Notes: generated from the sequence alone by a model not told the origin. Counted from the first letter of the stretch, positions 4,397 to 18,115 are shown. The stretch: 18,115 bases of DNA from a virus (IMGVR_UViG_2579778982_000016:1-18115); one strand, 5' to 3'. Program-made: numbers and translations.

Positions 4397-4838
4397 TCTC
4401 GTTCTTAAGGCTTTACGAAAAGCCGGGCTGTATTCCAATGCCACGTTGACAGATGCTGACCCTCAGGCAATTGAAGATGCCATTAATGACCTCGAAGACA
4501 TGATGGCAGCATGGCAGGCAAAAGGTATCGAGCTTGGGTATCAGTTTGCTGATACAGAAAACGGCATCATGCCGTTACCTGACGATGATTCAGGTATCCC
4601 TGCATGGGCAAATGATGGCGTCGCTTTGAAACTCGCTGTGCAAGTGTGCATGGATAACGTCATTCAGCCGTCAGACGCTCTCCTTACCGCTGCTGACAGT
4701 GCATATCAGACAATCTGTATCGCTTTAACCAAAATACCACCACTTGAGCGGAGAAATGACATGCCTCGCGGTAGTGGTAACAAAAGCGCGTTTACGTGGA
4801 ATCGGTTTTACATCGAGAAAGATGATCCGAGTACGTGA
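4377..4838 (+). CDS. head completion / tail adaptor protein (P22 gp4-like)
   Basis: 153 aa; position after coat and before the gp10-like gene matches P22 order. Assignment by synteny and size. Confidence 0.7.
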   Translation: MAKTKGDLVLKALRKAGLYSNATLTDADPQAIEDAINDLEDMMAAWQAKGIELGYQFADTENGIMPLPDDDSGIPAWANDGVALKLAVQVCMDNVIQPSDALLTAADSAYQTICIALTKIPPLERRNDMPRGSGNKSAFTWNRFYIEKDDPST

Positions 4839-4847
4839 GGTGAATAA

Positions 4848-6266
4848 ATGCCGATTCAGCAACTTCCGCTTATGAAAGGTGTCGGCAAAGACTTTCGAAA
4901 CGCCGACTATATCGACTATCTGCCAGTGAATATGTTGGCAACCCCCAAAGAAATCCTGAACAGCAGCGGATATCTTCGCTCATTCCCGGGCATTGCCAAA
5001 CGCTCTGATGTGAACGGTGTATCGCGCGGCGTCGAGTACAACATGGCGCAGAATGCTGTTTATCGTGTCTGTGGCGGCAAGCTCTACAAAGGCGAAAGCG
5101 AAGTCGGTGACGTCGCCGGAAGTGGTCGCGTATCAATGGCCCATGATCGGACATCACAGGCGGTAGGTGTTAACGGGAAACTGGTCGAGTATCGCTATGA
5201 TGGCACGGTTAAAACAGTCTCAAACTGGCCAACAGACAGCGGATTCACGCAGTATGAATTAGGTTCGGTCCGTGACATTACGCGCTTACGTGGGCGTTAT
5301 GCGTGGTCAAAAGACGGAACTGATTCATGGTTTATCACTGACCTTGAAGACGAATCGCATCCTGACCGCTACAGCGCACAATATCGCGCAGAATCGCAGC
5401 CGGACGGAATCATCGGTATCGGCACATGGCGAGACTTCATAGTCTGCTTTGGTTCATCAACGATTGAATATTTCTCCCTGACTGGTGCAACCACAGTTGG
5501 TGCCGCTTTGTATGTCGCACAACCATCACTGATGGTGCAAAAAGGCATTGCCGGAACTTACTGCAAAACGCCGTTTGCTGACTCGTATGCGTTCATCAGC
5601 AATCCGGCAACAGGTGCGCCGTCTGTATACATCATCGGCTCCGGTCAGGTATCACCAATCGCCAGCGCGAGCATTGAGAAAATCCTCCGCTCCTACACTG
5701 CTGATGAACTGGCTGATGGCGTGATGGAATCGCTGAGATTTGATGCGCATGAACTGCTGATTATCCATCTTACGCGCCACGTCCTCGTGTACGACGCATC
5801 TTCAAGCGCCAATGGTCCGCAATGGTGTGTACTGAAAACAGGCCTGTATGACGATGTGTACCGCGCTATCGACTTCATTTACGAAGGCAATCAGATAACG
5901 TGCGGCGATAAGCTGGAATCCATGACAGGGAAATTGCAATTCGACATCAGCAGCCAGTACGACAAGCAACAGGAACATCTGCTGTTTACTCCTCTGTTCA
6001 AAGCGGATAACGCCAGAGTGTTCGACCTTGAAGTTGAATCGTCAACTGGAGTTGCGCAGTACGCTGACCGCCTTTTTCTCTCTGCAACCACTGACGGCAT
6101 CAATTACGGGCGTGAGCAGATGATTGAGCAGAATGAACCGTTCGTTTACGACAAACGCGTTTTGTGGAAGCGTGTCGGGCGAATAAGGAAAAATGTCGGC
6201 TTCAAATTGCGCGTTATCACTAAGTCACCTGTCACTCTCTCAGGCTGCCAGATAAGGATTGAGTAA
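4848..6266 (+). CDS. head completion / tail hub protein (P22 gp10-like)
   Basis: 472 aa, the length remembered for P22 gp10; stop overlaps the next gene's ATG (TAATG). Confidence 0.8.
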
Positions 6267-11360: not shown

Positions 11361-11999
11361 TTAATTGCGAATGGAATCGCGGAACTCTTTACTTGATAGA
11401 AAAGGATCTGTTCTCCTTAACTCATCATAGTTTTTATTAAACTTTCTTGCTTCACCAGGGTATCTGTTGAACAAAACATTGCAGAAAAAAGAGAGCAATA
11501 ACTCACATATGAATGCTAATATCCTGAAAAATAAAGGTATAAAAAGAAGGAAAGGTTCATTGAAGTCTCTATTCCAAACAAAATAGACAATCATCCCGAC
11601 ATACCAAATTGATATCCCTATACTGATGATTGTTCCAACAGAGGTAACTACGATCCCGATTAAGTCGGACAGTCTGTTTGCCAGTAACTCATTTGAGTAT
11701 CTTGCAATCATATACCGCCAACATTTTGCAATATCATCCTGATCTGTAGAGTCTTCTGGAATGGCTAGGCTTCTACATATTGAAGCAGCTCTTTTTTTCT
11801 CAACTCTTTTTGAGAGCCATCCATTAAAGAGATACATCAACACCTGCGTTGCTATTCCTGCACCAAGTGATATCAAAGACATCCCCAAAAATCGCCACCC
11901 TGGAGATAGTGACTGGTACTGCCAAACAAAAAAAATTAAAAAACCTAATGATCCTATGACATAGGCTGATGTATCGCTATATATATCTATTTTTTTCAT
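11361..11999 (-). CDS. multi-pass inner-membrane protein, candidate superinfection-exclusion protein (sieA-like by position)
   Basis: ATG at 11999 (complement) preceded by GGAGTGG with 7-nt spacer; the tracked ORF's upstream extension lacks an RBS. About 4 hydrophobic helices (AYVIGSLGFLIFFVWQ, FLGMSLISLGAGIATQVLMYLF, IGIVVTSVGTIISIGISIWYVGMIVYFVW, FLLFIPLFFRILAFICELLLSFFCNVLF). AT-rich, opposite strand, convergent on gp16. Occupies the slot where P22 carries sieA. Confidence 0.6.
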   Translation of the reverse strand: MKKIDIYSDTSAYVIGSLGFLIFFVWQYQSLSPGWRFLGMSLISLGAGIATQVLMYLFNGWLSKRVEKKRAASICRSLAIPEDSTDQDDIAKCWRYMIARYSNELLANRLSDLIGIVVTSVGTIISIGISIWYVGMIVYFVWNRDFNEPFLLFIPLFFRILAFICELLLSFFCNVLFNRYPGEARKFNKNYDELRRTDPFLSSKEFRDSIRN

Positions 12000-12066
12000 T
12001 GAGTAGCCACTCCTTAGTTTTGAGCAGGATACCAGATGATAATGTGTAGTTGGAGTAGCGCGGTTG

Positions 12067-12160
12067 TAATGCAAGCATTTTGTTTTAGTTTTATGCTTGC
12101 TTGTATGTGTGTACAGTGCATATAATGCAAGCATACATCACAACAAAGGTGCTTGCATTA
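12067..12160. promoter_or_regulatory. divergent promoter/operator region with repeated inverted repeats
   Basis: TAATGCAAGCAT occurs at 12067-12078 and 12123-12134, each followed 14-15 bp later by its inverted complement (ATGCTTGC at 12093-12100; TGCTTGCATTA at 12150-12160). Sigma70-like -35 TTGCTT (12097-12102) and -10 TATAAT (12121-12126), 18-bp spacer, point at the 12160 gene. Confidence 0.55.
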
Positions 12161-13146
12161 TGACTGAAAAGAAAAGTGGCGAAGGGAAAGCTAAGGGTGG
12201 GATCGCTCGCGCAAAGTCGCTGACTAAAGAGCAGCGTTCTGAAATAGCAAAGAAAGCAGCGGCAAAACGATGGGAAGGTAAGCCACTAAGAGCGATCAGA
12301 AAGGGTAACTTCATTGATGATTTCGGCATTGATGCAGAATGTTACGTACTTGATGATAATGATAAAACGGTTGTAGTTAGTAAAACTGGTCTGGCTAAAT
12401 TACTAGGAATCGGTGAGCATGGTAGGGATGTAGACCGTTTTCTAAATACGAATTATATGGCTGATTTTGTCGATCCATTTTTGCTAGAAAAATTCAAAAA
12501 ACCTCTTATTTTTCAATGGAGAAGTCCGGTCCCAAACTCAGCCCCAAATCCACTCGCTGATGAGGCTCACGGTTACGATATTGCCCTTATCGGCGATATA
12601 GCCACAGCAATGATTAATGCCGATCGAGCTGGCGCTCTACCGCCTTCAAGATCAAAATCTGCCAGCCTTGCCCAAAGACTTGTTACCGCATCAATGAAAG
12701 CAGGGCTTAAAGGACTTGGTTATGCTATTGCAGGATATCGACCTGAAGTACAGGAGGTTATTGATTCCTTCAAGGCCTTTGTTCGTGAAGAGGCGAGGCA
12801 GTATGAAAAAGAATTTCCAGATGAGCTATATGAGGAGTGGTATCGACTGTACGGCCTGAACAGGCCAGAGAAAGGACGTCCAATTCGTTTTGGGCAGCTA
12901 ACCAACATGCAGATATACACTCCTCTAGCAAAGAGTAAAGGTAAAATCCTTGAACAGATTCGAGCCAGCCGAGACGAGAACGGAAAACAATCTGATAAGT
13001 TGCACCTGTTCCTTTCTGAAATTGGTGTCAAGGCTTTGCGTCAGCATATCGGTAAGCTTCTTGGTGTCGCAGCGATGAGCGAGACAAGAGAAGAATACGA
13101 AAAAGGAATCGAAAAGGTTTTTGGAAGAATAAAACCAGAAATCTAA
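12160..13146 (+). CDS. hypothetical protein (328 aa) with basic N-terminal motif, possibly P63C-domain family
   Basis: ATG at 12160 preceded by AAAGG; the tracked TTG start at 12097 lies inside the promoter repeats. N-terminus KGGIARAKSLTKEQRSEIAKKAAAKRWEG resembles a short basic motif I recall at the start of phage proteins annotated P63C; family assignment unverified. Confidence 0.6.
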   Translation: MTEKKSGEGKAKGGIARAKSLTKEQRSEIAKKAAAKRWEGKPLRAIRKGNFIDDFGIDAECYVLDDNDKTVVVSKTGLAKLLGIGEHGRDVDRFLNTNYMADFVDPFLLEKFKKPLIFQWRSPVPNSAPNPLADEAHGYDIALIGDIATAMINADRAGALPPSRSKSASLAQRLVTASMKAGLKGLGYAIAGYRPEVQEVIDSFKAFVREEARQYEKEFPDELYEEWYRLYGLNRPEKGRPIRFGQLTNMQIYTPLAKSKGKILEQIRASRDENGKQSDKLHLFLSEIGVKALRQHIGKLLGVAAMSETREEYEKGIEKVFGRIKPEI

Positions 13147-13451: not shown

Positions 13452-13988
13452 TCAAACAACCCACCAGTTTGCCTGATTGGATACCAGCCTTGCAGTTTTT
13501 ATGGAATTAATTATGCCATGCTCAAGAGCCTTGTTAGCATCCAAAATGGTCGAGTCTGCTATCAGGGATGCCCACCTAATATGGGTTCCGATGTCGATAT
13601 TGAACGTCTCAACGAAGCGATCAAGATCGTTATCGAGGCATTTCCCGTACTCTCTCAATCTGGCATGGTCGGCGGCTGGGGTGGCAAAGCCCCATAATAG
13701 AGGATGTAACAGGAATCTTGATAATGGGTTTGCGAAACGTTCTGAGCCAGCCAGGAAAACGATATTAGCTATGGATTCAACATTGCTTATGTTGTGAGTT
13801 CTAACGGTAACAGGGAGTGACTTAAGAAAGTTATACGCAGTAAAGCCAGCGGCAGTTTCCCCTCCCTGACTTGATATATGGATATTTAATTCAGTTGCGC
13901 CTTGAGATAATGCGGTGAGACAGTGGTTCTGAAGTTGCCCAACAGTGGCGGTGTTAACGGGGCATAAGAAATGAATTGTGTGCAGCAT
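13452..13988 (-). CDS. ClpP-fold serine protease-like protein (178 aa)
   Basis: Translation aligns by eye along its length with E. coli ClpP core: IHISSQGGETAAGFTAYNFL vs INSPGGVITAGMSIYDTM; VRTHNISNVESIANIVFLAG vs [20 protein letters not shown] (catalytic Ser aligned); FLLHPLLWG vs VMIHQPLGG (catalytic His aligned); TILDANKALEHGIINSI vs FLSAPEAVEYGLVDSI. Start ATG overlaps the mnt stop (ATAAATAATG) with AAGGA upstream. Confidence 0.65.
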   Translation of the reverse strand: MLHTIHFLCPVNTATVGQLQNHCLTALSQGATELNIHISSQGGETAAGFTAYNFLKSLPVTVRTHNISNVESIANIVFLAGSERFANPLSRFLLHPLLWGFATPAADHARLREYGKCLDNDLDRFVETFNIDIGTHIRWASLIADSTILDANKALEHGIINSIKTARLVSNQANWWVV

Positions 13989-14236
13989 TATTTATCATCC
14001 TTACCATACATGGTTTTCAGCGTCTCCAGCAGCGCCTCTTTGAATTTGTCAGCTTCTTGCTGAGCAAATGACTCAACTGACTTTGGCGACCTATCTTCAT
14101 CAATCGCGGCTTGCAAAATCATGACGATCTCGGAGTTAACAGAGCGACCATTTTTTGATGCTCTAACAGCAAGAGCCTCGCGCAAAGATTCAGGGATTCT
14201 TACCGTAGTTGGAGAAATTGACACACCCTTTGCCAT
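13988..14236 (-). CDS. mnt: Mnt-like ribbon-helix-helix repressor
   Basis: 82 aa; N-terminal RHH with the NGRSVNSEI signature shared with P22 Mnt (NGRSMNSEL) and Arc; charged C-terminal helix for oligomerisation; divergent from arc-ant as in P22 immI. Confidence 0.8.
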   Translation of the reverse strand: MAKGVSISPTTVRIPESLREALAVRASKNGRSVNSEIVMILQAAIDEDRSPKSVESFAQQEADKFKEALLETLKTMYGKDDK

Positions 14237-14735: not shown

Positions 14736-15638
14736 ATGAATAGTATAGCAATTTTAGAAGCAGTGAACACCTCTTACGTGCCATTCAACGGTCAGCAAAT
14801 TATCACCGCCATGGCTGCCGGAGTTGCATATGTTGCGATGAAGCCAATCGTTGAAAACCTCGGAATGAGCTGGTCAACGCAGCAAACAAAACTCATGAAG
14901 CAGATTAGCAAATTCAACTGTGTTCATATGAACATGGTTGCCGCTGATGGTAAGCTTCGTAAGCTACTCTGCCTTCCTTTGAAGAAGTTAAATGGATGGC
15001 TGTTCAGCATCAACCCTGAGAAAGTTCGTGCTGACATCCGCGATAAACTGATTCAGTACCAGGAAGAATGCTTTACTGTGCTGCATGACTACTGGACAAA
15101 GGGAGAGGCAGCAAATGCACGGAAGAAAACATCTGTTGATGACAGGACTCCGCTTCGTGATGCTGTAAATATGCTAGTCAGCAAAAAGCATCTAATGTAC
15201 CCAGAAGCTTATGCAATGATTCATCAGCGTTTCAATGTGGAAAGTATTGAAGAGCTTGATGCATCTCAGATACCACAAGCAGTAGAGTACATCCACAGGG
15301 TAGTGCTTGAAGGTGAGTTCATCGGCAAACAAGAGAAGAAAACCAACGAGCTTTCTGCAAAAGAAGCAAACAGCCTTGTATGGCTATGGGATTATGCCAA
15401 CCGCTCACAGGCATTATTCCGCGAACTGTATCCGGCGCTAAAACAAATTCAATCGAACTATTCCGGCAGATGCTACGACTACGGTCATGAATTCTCGTAT
15501 GTTATCGGAATGGCGAGAGACGTTTTAATAAACCACACACGAGATGTTGATATTAATGAACCAGACGGACCAACGAATCTTTCCGCATGGATGAGACTTA
15601 AGAATAAAGAATTACCTCCTTCAGTACATAACTACTGA
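14736..15638 (+). CDS. ant: antirepressor Ant
   Basis: ATG at 14736 gives 300 aa starting [21 protein letters not shown], which matches my recollection of P22 Ant in sequence and length; follows arc as in immI. The tracked GTG start at 14670 is probably an artefactual extension. Confidence 0.85.
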
Positions 15639-15656
15639 TAGATAACCAACGCAACG

Positions 15657-15680
15657 ACCCAGCTTCGGCTGGGTTTTTTT
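15657..15680 (+). terminator. rho-independent terminator after ant
   Basis: ACCCAGC-ttcg-GCTGGGT hairpin followed by seven T. Confidence 0.85.
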
Positions 15681-15738
15681 ATGCCCAAAATTCACCGTAG
15701 CCATGCTTCGGCGATTCCTTGTATCTGGAGCAAATTAA

Positions 15739-17787
15739 ATGACAGACATTACAGCCAATGTTGTAGTAAGCATGCCTTCGCAACTCTTCACTATGGCTCG
15801 TTCTTTTAAAGCCGTAGCCAATGGCAAAATTTATATCGGTAAAATTGACACGGACCCGGTAAATCCTGAAAACCAGATTCAGGTTTATGTAGAGAATGAA
15901 GACGGTTCTCACGTTCCTGTTCCGCAACCAATCATCATTAACGCCGCTGGATATCCGGTATATAACGGACAGATTGCCAAGTTCGTAACTGTGCAAGGCC
16001 ATTCTATGGCTGTTTATGATGCGTATGGTTCGCAGCAGTTCTACTTTCCTAATGTGCTGAAGTATGATCCGGATCAGCTAAGACATGAGCTAGCGTCGGA
16101 AGCGGGAACAACTTTAATAGGGAAGGGTGATCGAACTCTTGAAGAGTACTTAGAATCAAGCAAGGAAGATTTTGATAACTCATGGAAGAGATATGTAGGT
16201 AAATCTACAACGACACAAAAAGATAGCGCATACTCTGGAGCGGCTCACTACCAACCAGTTAGCGATGATGGGAGCGCAATTGGTAATTATACATTTGAAT
16301 CACCGGTGATTGTTGACTTCTCATCTACATCAGATTGTGTTATGCCAGATTCTGGTGTCGTTTTCAAAATGGGAGCTAATGGACTTACAAGTGGTAATTA
16401 TTTTTCTCAAGATAATTACCACTTAAAAAATGTAACGGCAATTGGCGGCACTCCTGAAATTGTTACATTTGAACCATACACAGGATTGACAGCACTAGTA
16501 GATGGTGTTCGCATTATAAATAATGGCTCTCCAGACAAGACCGCTATTAATTTTAAAGGACAGAACTGGTGGCCTACAGTATCTAATAATATATTTAAAG
16601 ATTATACAGATAAAAGAGGAAATTTTTGCAAGGCAATAGATGACGGAGGAGATTTATCTATAAGAAGGAGTGGGAATAGTAGATTGCTTTTCACTGGAAA
16701 TAAAGTCTACTTTGGTGGGGATGCTCTTGGTGGTACGATGTTGAAAGCCAGCGCTGTCTTTAATATTATAAAAGATAATGCCTGTGAACACGGAGAGAAC
16801 GCGATTGTGTTTGAGTACCCATCATCATTCTCAGTTGTCGACGGACTTTACACAGAATGTTCTTTTGGTGGTGGTAATCAGATAGTAATTGGTGACAAAG
16901 AACCTGATCCTAATATTGCAACAATGAATATGATTGGAATAACTATTAAGAATGTTTATTTCAATAATCATTCACATTCATCAAATAGGCTAATCAAATC
17001 TGGAAATGAAACCGTAAGAATAGACAGGTTAATTGTTGATAATATAATTGTCACAAATGCAAATGTTGCATCGCCAGTTATTGAGTTGAATGATGTTCCC
17101 GGGCAATCGATTTGTGTCGGAAATGTATACTCTGGAGTTTCACTAATAAATAAAACAAGCAATGCTGTAAAAATAATAGATATGAATAATAATTTTATTA
17201 AATCGCTAAATGGTAATTTAGCGTCTTCGGGGGGGGACTCCGCAACAGTAAATAATTCTAGAGAAAAAGTATTTGGTAACTTTTTTATTCAATCAACAGG
17301 AAGTTTGTCAGTTAGCAGATATGCAAGTGGTAATCAGTATCAAAAAAATAGAGAGTCAAAGAACTACGCGGCTATAACCATAGTTCCTAATACTTCGTGC
17401 GGTTTTGAGTGGCAGAACCCAAGATATTCAGACCTATCTGGATCTATAGCAACAGTTCAGTTTCTAGCCAAAGCAAGCACTACAGTGAGTGCAGTAGTTT
17501 TAGTTAAATACAAGAACAGTTCTGGAGGTGACACGCTTGCAGCATCATCAATTAGTATTAATGGTGGTGATTTTCAGGAGTTTACTATTCCATTCTTTGC
17601 TAACCGCAATGATGATGATGATTCTGTTCTCTCTGTTGATATTAGATTTGAAAATACATTATCAAGCATTGTTTTTTATGTTTGTGCTTTTAGATTAAAC
17701 AGGGGGGATACAGGACTATGCCGGTCTGCTAATGATTATACGACAGGAGAGATTGATGCAGAGATATCAAAATTCACATTTTATTAA
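15739..17787 (+). CDS. tailspike protein: P22 gp9-type head-binding N-domain fused to a divergent receptor-binding domain
   Basis: First ~113 aa ([60 protein letters not shown]...[11 protein letters not shown]) are near-identical to the remembered P22 tailspike head-binding domain. The remaining ~570 aa are unrelated to P22 gp9, AT-rich, with beta-helix-like G/N/V/I-rich repeats. GGAG RBS upstream. Confidence 0.9.
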
Positions 17788-17884
17788 TCTACGCAGATCT
17801 TTATAAAATCTGAGACAAGAGTTGGTGGCGGAAAAGCTTTGTACTGGATTGCAAAGCTTTGTGCTATTCGGTAGTTAAGGTGGG
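17788..17884. other. candidate attP / integrase-binding region between tailspike and int
   Basis: About 97 bp non-coding between convergent tailspike and int. Two direct copies of AAAGCTTTGT (each containing the palindrome AAAGCTTT) at ~17835-17845 and ~17861-17871; short hairpin GGTGG-gtcact-CCACC-TTTT at the int 3' end. Confidence 0.35.
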
Positions 17885-18115
17885 TCACTCCACCTTTTCA
17901 TCAATCCAATCCGCCCACCACTGCATCATTTCTCTGCGCTTATCGAGATACTGCGCATGGTTGTAAATACCGCGCACAGATCCGCCGTTGGCATGTGCCA
18001 GTTGCACTTCAATAGCATCAGCAGGCCATTCGTGCTCGTTCATAATCGTGCTGAATTCATGCCTGAATCCGTGACCGCTTTCCAGACCTTCATAGCCGAT
18101 TTGTTTGATCACAAG
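17885..18115 (-). CDS. int: tyrosine integrase, C-terminal part (gene continues beyond window end)
   Basis: Translation ...HGFRHEFSTIMNE...AIEVQLAHANGGSVRGIYNHAQYLDKRREMMQWWADWIDEKVE carries the His-x-x-Arg box and a C-terminal Tyr region typical of lambda-family tyrosine recombinases. Reading frame is open to the window edge. Confidence 0.8.
   Translation of the reverse strand, partial: LVIKQIGYEGLESGHGFRHEFSTIMNEHEWPADAIEVQLAHANGGSVRGIYNHAQYLDKRREMMQWWADWIDEKVE

Follow-up and report, generated by a model that had tools for sequence, protein, structure and literature searches.

Phages Sf6, HK620 and CUS-3 carry tailspikes (gp14, gp9 and an endosialidase, directed at the S. flexneri Y O-antigen, O18A1 and K1 polysialic acid, respectively) that share a head-binding domain, a gene position after ant and before int, and a breakpoint after the motif YDPDQ. 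More generally, P22-like tailspikes consist of a conserved head-binding domain (amino acids 1-115) followed by non-homologous receptor domains (PMC2629481). Such modules also cross between phage groups, as in P22 gp9 and gp207 (tailspike protein 3, TSP3) of the myovirus Det7, whose receptor module is common to both, a P22-type spike on a myovirus that PMC8432352 and PMC11721090 cite from Walter et al. 2008. A further Det7 tailspike, gp206 (TSP4), has an N-terminus of 483 amino acids with T4 gp10-like XD domains, which fixes the branched four-spike complex to the baseplate of the contractile tail (PMC8432352). Here we describe a tailspike gene at positions 15739-17787 (+) of an 18,115-nucleotide stretch of viral DNA (IMGVR_UViG_2579778982_000016, hereafter the window), in which a receptor module of the Det7 TSP4 type is joined to a P22-type anchor. 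The gene very probably encodes the receptor-binding and receptor-destroying tailspike of a P22-like (Lederbergvirus-type) temperate E. coli phage, with a mobile receptor cassette for which the E. coli O114 O-antigen is the most likely receptor. Modular tailspike exchange, including that between P22-like podoviruses and Det7, is textbook knowledge, and nothing in this case is conceptually new; what is mildly new is that a rare, structurally uncharacterised receptor module ties together the orphan Det7 TSP4, prophages of Citrobacter and a lysogen of E. coli O114.

The window is the entire contig JICA01000080.1 of E. coli draft assembly GCA_000691105.1. It holds the virion half of a P22-like temperate phage and is 95-96% identical in nucleotide sequence to E. 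coli phages phiv205-1, EC.P3 and CUS-3 across 55-68% of its length. The tailspike gene is an intact open reading frame (ORF) of 682 codons, at the coordinates given by an earlier sequence-only reading of the window, and its product matches WP_027662152.1 exactly (annotated as a phage head-binding domain-containing protein of Escherichia coli). As expected of a P22-like tailspike gene, it closes the late region, 3' of the ant/immI moron, and genes for a P22-type tail hub are present in the window.

Residues 1-113 (15739..16077, +), which end in KYDPDQ, constitute the head-binding, or virion attachment, domain: the Pfam profile Head_binding (PF09008) aligned over its full length (1-113 of 113) with E 9.1e-67 and 222.9 bits, against a cutoff of 24. 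In a sequence search of the PDB, Sf6 gp14, P22 gp9, CUS-3-type and related chains matched residues 1-117/122 only. The sequence-only reading had called this domain almost identical to that of P22 gp9, and it was right as to the type; the identity to P22 gp9 is, however, only 77.9% (88/113), whereas that to Sf6 gp14 (7sg7), the closest solved relative, is 92.9% (105/113). At the nucleotide level the region is closest to the E. coli P22-like phages 720R6, CUS-3 and HK620 (92-95% identity), and judging by these identities the domain belongs with those of Sf6, HK620 and CUS-3 and is no near-copy of the P22 domain. Beyond it, likeness to P22 gp9 ends at residue 117, full-length P22 tailspike chains matching the N-terminal stretch only, and the C-terminal ~550 residues, which showed no sequence homology to P22 gp9, fall outside its endorhamnosidase family (P22, Det7 gp207, 9NA), in agreement with the same reading, which had seen no resemblance to the P22 endorhamnosidase after about residue 113. 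The receptor domains of Sf6, HK620 and CUS-3 are likewise unrelated in sequence to the one found here, with ~10% identity in structural alignment.

The receptor domain, from L114 to the last residue (682), does have relatives, so that the part of the earlier claim which described it simply as unrelated has to be amended. By BLASTP it is 75% identical over 569 amino acids to residues 484-1048 of Det7 gp206, and the profile phrog_36390 covers its residues 1-569 at profile positions 484-1048 with E 6.8e-300. Homology to this Det7-TSP4-type module thus runs from end to end, through neck, beta-helix and C-terminal sandwich. A comparison of residues 114-682 with the Det7 tailspikes, which the sequence-only reading had proposed, therefore does yield a match, albeit to gp206 (TSP4) and not to the P22-like gp207 (TSP3). 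At the DNA level, the gene from nucleotide 607 to the stop codon is 80.6% identical to Det7 gene 206 over 1.44 kb, the homology ceasing exactly at the stop codon, and the same homology was found in the Det7 relatives vB_SenM-2, Phi_10 and RA148 (Kuttervirus, Ackermannviridae). The anchors of the two proteins are wholly different: residues 1-483 of Det7 gp206, comprising the XD1/XD2, T4 gp10-like anchor, have no similarity in the tailspike described here, which bears the 113-residue P22 head-binding domain instead and is not, as a whole protein, a TSP4 of the Ackermannviridae.

The receptor-domain family is small, as a search of 5.8 billion proteins returned 19 relatives and HMMER, run exhaustively against 1.84 billion cluster representatives, returned 23 matches at E <= 1e-3. 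Its members are attached to four kinds of anchor, namely the P22 head-binding domain PF09008 (in Dickeya, Xenorhabdus, E. coli and Citrobacter freundii, the junction reading Y(D/E)PDQLR throughout), an N-terminus that resembles, at 84-90% identity, those of the SPN1S and phiV10 tailspikes (epsilon15-like phages), a TSP1/Gp66-type N-terminal domain (PF18668), and the N-terminus of Det7 TSP4.

Comparison with P22-like relatives delimits the replaced segment. Many E. coli P22-like phages (CUS-3, 720R6, HK620 and an O141 prophage) have the head-binding domain and the flanks on either side in common with the window, at 92-98% nucleotide identity, and in these phages the region ~16081-17851 is replaced by unrelated receptor domains. 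Nucleotide similarity ends at 16080 and resumes at 17852 in CUS-3, ends at 16085 and resumes at 17852 in 720R6, and ends at 16116 and resumes at 17877 in the O141:H4 prophage. Since similarity to these three relatives stops and resumes there, the cassette that is replaceable in the P22 lineage, as far as alignment can place its ends, extends from about 16081/16117 to 17851 (~1.75 kb), beginning immediately after KYDPDQ or at most 13 codons later (amino acids 113-126) and ending 64 bp past the stop codon. These 64 bp (17788..17851) form a cassette-specific 3' flank that is not common to other P22-like phages, Det7 homology ending at 17788. The limits agree with the organization described for P22-like tailspikes (PMC2629481). 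They also uphold two proposals of the sequence-only reading, that the junction lies after YDPDQ and that it arose from a horizontal module swap, as a conserved head-binding domain and conserved flanks surround a replaced receptor segment. Such a swap would be expected to change receptor specificity.

A second transition lies within the module. Identity to Det7 gp206 is 24-33% in amino acids 114-165, 46% in 166-202 and 72-92% from 203 onward, so that the neck, or linker (amino acids 114-202; 16078..16344, +), is only 24-46% identical. Near amino acid 203, where the identity jumps, nucleotide homology to Det7 also begins (16345) and the GC content drops. The neck is particular to P22-anchored versions of the module, that of the window being 81-100% identical in amino acid sequence to those of the P22-anchored homologues P0002, P0006 and P0007, and more generally its version follows the anchor: members with Gp66- or TSP4-type anchors share that of Det7, and those with epsilon15-type anchors have a third. 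A tblastn search of 50,697 phage records with amino acids 114-205 returned the Det7 group only (37%), and no third donor phage for the neck. On these alignments there are two nested junctions, the P22-lineage breakpoint at amino acids 113-126 and the second transition near amino acid 203.

Pieces of the module have also been shuffled further downstream. The E. coli cluster at 93% (P0002) matches the window at 100% as far as residue 320 and at 78-92% beyond it, and a P22-type tailspike of C. freundii (P0007, 685 amino acids) is 98-100% identical to Det7 TSP4 from residue 321 (its last ~360 amino acids) and 29-72% identical before. This last comparison (P0007 against Det7 gp206, locus L001, 4297-7443) indicates a very recent partial exchange between the lineage of a virulent Salmonella myovirus and a Citrobacter prophage; the likeness also hints that Det7 TSP4 targets a Citrobacter O-antigen. 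Whole cassettes appear to move as well. The prophage of E. coli strain AHB3, compared with the contig, is 99-100% identical in receptor-domain DNA and 91.5-96% in the head-binding region, with a backbone that is ~94% identical or unalignable, from which we infer that the cassette moves, and has moved recently, between E. coli prophages. Tailspikes of one and the same 90% cluster were also observed in P22-like prophages at two sites, argW with an IntS-type integrase and ybhB-bioA-bioB without an adjacent integrase (locus L011, JAJANI010000016.1, against loci L012, L009 and L002), so that the cassette has reached phages whose integration modules differ.

The base composition changes along the gene. 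Codons 1-113 have a GC content of 43.7%, with 42.5% at third codon positions (GC3), against 36.6% and 25.5% in codons 114-682; the neck (codons 114-202) stands at 41.6% and 30.3%, and codons 203-682 at 35.6% and 24.6%. The receptor domain is the lowest-GC kilobase in the window, and its GC3 compares with 42-54% in the virion genes. A single change-point model, whose significance was assessed by 200 permutations, placed the maximum-likelihood change at 16278, on a broad plateau (16150-16400), with a log-likelihood ratio of 10.4 against a maximum of 6.5 in the permutations. The shift towards AT that had been reported as sharp, and as falling at the YDPDQ junction, is thus real and statistically supported; its sharpness and position were overstated, since GC drops ~200-270 nucleotides 3' of that junction (16077) and over a broad plateau, the neck keeping a GC content like that of the backbone.

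We modelled residues 114-682 as a monomer with AlphaFold2 from 19 sequences (mean predicted local distance difference test, pLDDT, 79.7; predicted template modelling score, pTM, 0.76). The model has a right-handed parallel beta-helix at about amino acids 184-529 (16288..17325, +), seen as a long run of short strands with pLDDT mostly 80-95 and with the stacked three-strand coils of the pectin-lyase-like fold; this would be the polysaccharide-binding and -cleaving body of the protein. A C-terminal beta-sandwich follows at about amino acids 542-655 (17362..17703, +; strands at receptor-domain residues 429-542), and then a short C-terminal tail (amino acids 656-682; 17704-17784, +). Searched against the PDB with Foldseek, the sandwich matched carbohydrate-binding modules (CBMs) of families CBM11, CBM4, CBM22 and CBM61 (E 5e-6 to 5e-4, TM on target 0.5-0.67), and a match in BFVD was labelled 'Carbohydrate-binding, CenC-like'. 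The best whole-chain match in the PDB was TSP4 of phage CBA120 (ORF213, 5w6h; E 4.9e-10 over 542 aligned columns), a tailspike specific for E. coli O78 in which a C-terminal beta-sandwich likewise comes after a beta-helix. With ~10% identity and a TM-score of 0.33 it is not a member of the family and serves as a guide to architecture only. By analogy with known tailspikes, the receptor domain would form trimers.

Conservation within the family points to a possible active site. Among 26 members, down to 28% identity, D225, N276, W278, S314, R315, Y371, E373 and H411 are invariant and D301, D302, E350, D386 and D452 nearly so. These residues are reasonable candidates for a catalytic groove, and the acidic candidates among them would be D225/E373, D301/D302 and E350.

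The receptor itself is suggested by the serogroup of a lysogen. Among 5,426 complete E. coli genomes, the head-binding sequence occurs in 1,138 and the whole gene in AHB3 alone (98% nucleotide identity), a blood-culture isolate deposited twice, whose prophage lies at argW with the same arrangement of tailspike and int. The O-antigen cluster of AHB3 carries wzx and wzy of the O114 family, and O114 wzy is present in just 9 of the 5,426 genomes (0.17%), so that the chance of a random carrier being O114 is ~0.002. For P22-like prophages, the prediction of tailspike specificity from lysogen serogroup has been validated (PMC10408124). No O-antigen-modification gene was found between tailspike and integrase, among either the ORFs of the window or those of the AHB3 locus, and the serogroup of the lysogen should therefore reflect the receptor. 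The published description of the O114 O-antigen includes ribofuranose (Ribf) and an N-acetyl-L-seryl amide (N-acetyl-seryl-Qui3N) and lists no uronic acid (PMC7685785), which favours hydrolysis over beta-elimination, that is, a hydrolase over a lyase. Taken together, we consider the chances somewhat better than even that the receptor is the E. coli O114 O-antigen. As a separate observation, the gene for the O-antigen chain-length regulator, wzzB, is frameshifted in AHB3 (NZ_OZ547164.1, locus L003, 30556-31532).

Several points weigh against the reading of the module as a glycosidase specific for O114. The link to this serogroup comes from one independent complete genome, that of AHB3. The nearest relative in a characterised phage, Det7 TSP4, is without an assigned receptor, belongs to a Salmonella phage and has its closest kin among prophage tailspikes of C. 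freundii; the receptors of Det7 TSP2 and TSP3 are O3,10 and O4, and TSP4 is absent from the 2024 receptor table (PMC11721090 Table 2; PMC8432352). In the literature we found no receptor assignment for Det7 TSP4 and no mention of an O114 tailspike, and specificity may differ within the receptor-domain family. The family is moreover without a solved structure, the PDB sequence search having given no match past residue ~138; Pfam, searched with the full protein at E <= 1, returned Head_binding alone and no glycoside hydrolase, polysaccharide lyase or Beta_helix family; and the structural model is that of a monomer, whose neck has low pLDDT and a single helix. It is quite conceivable, if not what we would expect, that the receptor is another glycan (a different O-type that Citrobacter or Salmonella also has, colanic acid, a capsule or the enterobacterial common antigen) and that the co-occurrence with O114 is a coincidence of one strain. 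The lone lysogen would allow this, as would the 98-100% likeness of the Det7 version to C. freundii prophage tailspikes across the last 360 amino acids and the existence of members in Dickeya and Xenorhabdus, neither of which makes O114, although it may simply be that specificity has drifted apart in the more distant members (50-70% identity). Colanic acid in particular was raised by the profile phrog_8280 ('colanic acid degradation'), which matched residues 1-553 of the full protein with E 4.6e-111; the match was lost when the receptor domain was searched alone and is an artefact of the shared N-terminus. Against coincidence, too, stands the low chance (~0.002) of a serogroup whose wzy is found in 0.17% of complete genomes turning up in the sole carrier, and the P22-like tailspikes studied so far target the O- or K-antigen of the lysogen (PMC10408124, PMC2629481).

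Two further alternatives concern the activity and the origin of the module, and we regard both as improbable. Were the module to bind without cutting, as a beta-helix adhesin with a lectin-like C-terminal domain, this would fit both the lack of a detected glycoside hydrolase or lyase family in Pfam and the resemblance of the C-terminal domain to non-catalytic CBMs. It would fit poorly, however, with the invariance of D225 and E373 and the near-invariance of D301, D302, E350, D386 and D452 across the 26 members, which is typical of catalytic grooves, and with the fact that the characterised tailspikes of the P22 family are, as is well established, all depolymerases or deacetylases (PMC2629481, PMC10408124). 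As for origin, the low GC3 of the receptor domain relative to the virion genes, and its standing as the lowest-GC kilobase, could be taken to mean that the gene was acquired only recently, from a low-GC donor that does not belong to the Enterobacterales, and is no long-resident enterobacterial phage cassette. Yet all 23 detectable representatives with taxonomic labels come from Enterobacterales hosts or their phages, and the P22-anchored form is already found in E. coli, Citrobacter, Dickeya and Xenorhabdus, where identities are 61-93% and the YDPDQLR junction recurs, implying long residence. The Det7 copy is likewise AT-rich (GC 40.0%, GC3 32.9%), and a low GC content is often seen in receptor genes of phages, as also in the moron region next to the tailspike gene in the window (38.6-44% GC, 10.5-15.7 kb).

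By analogy with P22, Sf6 and HK620, infection would proceed as follows. Residues 1-113 would dock six tailspike trimers onto the tail hub of gp4 and gp10, both encoded in the window, and the neck of ~90 residues would lead into the beta-helix and the CBM-like beta-sandwich. The beta-helix would bind O-antigen repeats and most likely cleave them hydrolytically, allowing the virion to descend to the outer membrane, where the needle and ejection proteins encoded upstream in the window would act next; the CBM-like tip might contribute avidity or trimer stability. The module itself very probably entered this phage through recombination just after YDPDQ, the breakpoint customary in the P22 lineage, and has recombined further internally.

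The surroundings of the gene follow the P22 pattern. The window begins with the genes for portal, scaffold, coat, gp4, gp10, needle, gp14 and the ejection proteins gp7, gp20 and gp16; after gp16 come genes for SieA-like, P63C-domain and Arc/Mnt-like products, the last accompanied by a small gene for a ClpP-like protease, and then Arc and Ant; and Ant is followed by the tailspike gene and, in convergent orientation, by the 3' end of an integrase gene of the IntS type. The conserved upstream flank from ant to the tailspike start (15639..15738, +) corresponds to the 'boundary sequence bsq1' of CUS-3, annotated at 4901-5001 of the CUS-3 locus L006, in which 4568-5342 match window 15306-16080 at 96%; a terminator-like hairpin lies within this flank at 15656-15675. 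Downstream, the integrase ORF (17885..18115, -; PF00589) is of the argW-integrating IntS type. In strain AHB3 the order is tailspike, intS and tRNA-Arg, and the int gene of CUS-3 occupies the same position. Small ORFs of 56-107 codons that overlap the tailspike gene (15679-16002, -; 16968-17162, -; 17528-17698, +) are most likely chance ORFs of AT-rich sequence.

A promoter and terminator scan found no convincing terminator between tailspike and int, only a palindromic repeat. This decamer, AAAGCTTTGT, is present in two copies 20 bp apart (window 17834-17871) between the stop codons of tailspike and integrase; paired, the two copies make up the stem of a hairpin predicted for the 97-nucleotide spacer (-23.7 kcal/mol), and the second falls in the stretch conserved with CUS-3 and 720R6. 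The repeat might serve as a terminator in both directions or be bound by a protein.

Two regions between gp16 and the tailspike gene also deserve mention. Between gp16 and the immI region lie a SieA-like superinfection-exclusion gene (11361-12134, -) and a gene for a 349-amino-acid protein with a P63C domain (12097-13146, +; phrog_2384, function unknown), and the region is compositionally distinct, with 38.6-44% GC against ~50% in the virion genes. Within the 'ant moron', the segment 13452-14236 (-) holds a stand-alone gene for a ClpP/S49-like serine protease of 178 amino acids (PF00574, E 4e-12; phrog_94 'head maturation protease', E 6e-21) and, directly upstream of it and in the same orientation, an Arc/Mnt-like repressor gene (13988-14236). 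To our knowledge, P22-like phages use no head protease. PADLOC found no defence-system match for the protease/repressor pair at 13452-14236, and the protease gene could have a moron or exclusion function.

To summarize, the homology to Det7 on a P22-like anchor provides a further clear example of one cassette moving between podoviral prophages and Ackermannviridae myoviruses. Tentatively, and as a possibility that we would not yet call probable, Det7-type TSP4 and its P22-, epsilon15- and Gp66-like cousins may all target O114 or a related Ribf/acylated-Qui3N O-antigen of Citrobacter or Salmonella, as beta-helix glycosidases with a site centred on D225/E373 and a CBM-like tip, shuffled in sub-module pieces across temperate podoviruses, virulent myoviruses and genera. 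The link to the AHB3 lysogen, if true, would be the first receptor hypothesis for an orphan tailspike family, and a testable one for Det7 TSP4. O114 is a classical serogroup of enterotoxigenic and enteropathogenic E. coli, and the tailspike described here offers an intact O114-candidate module on the well-understood P22 scaffold. Tailspike receptor modules set the serogroup range of phages, engineered pyocins and diagnostic reporter phages, and the exchange seen within this module, with blocks of 98-100% identity beside blocks of 30-70%, matters for the design of chimeric tailspikes.

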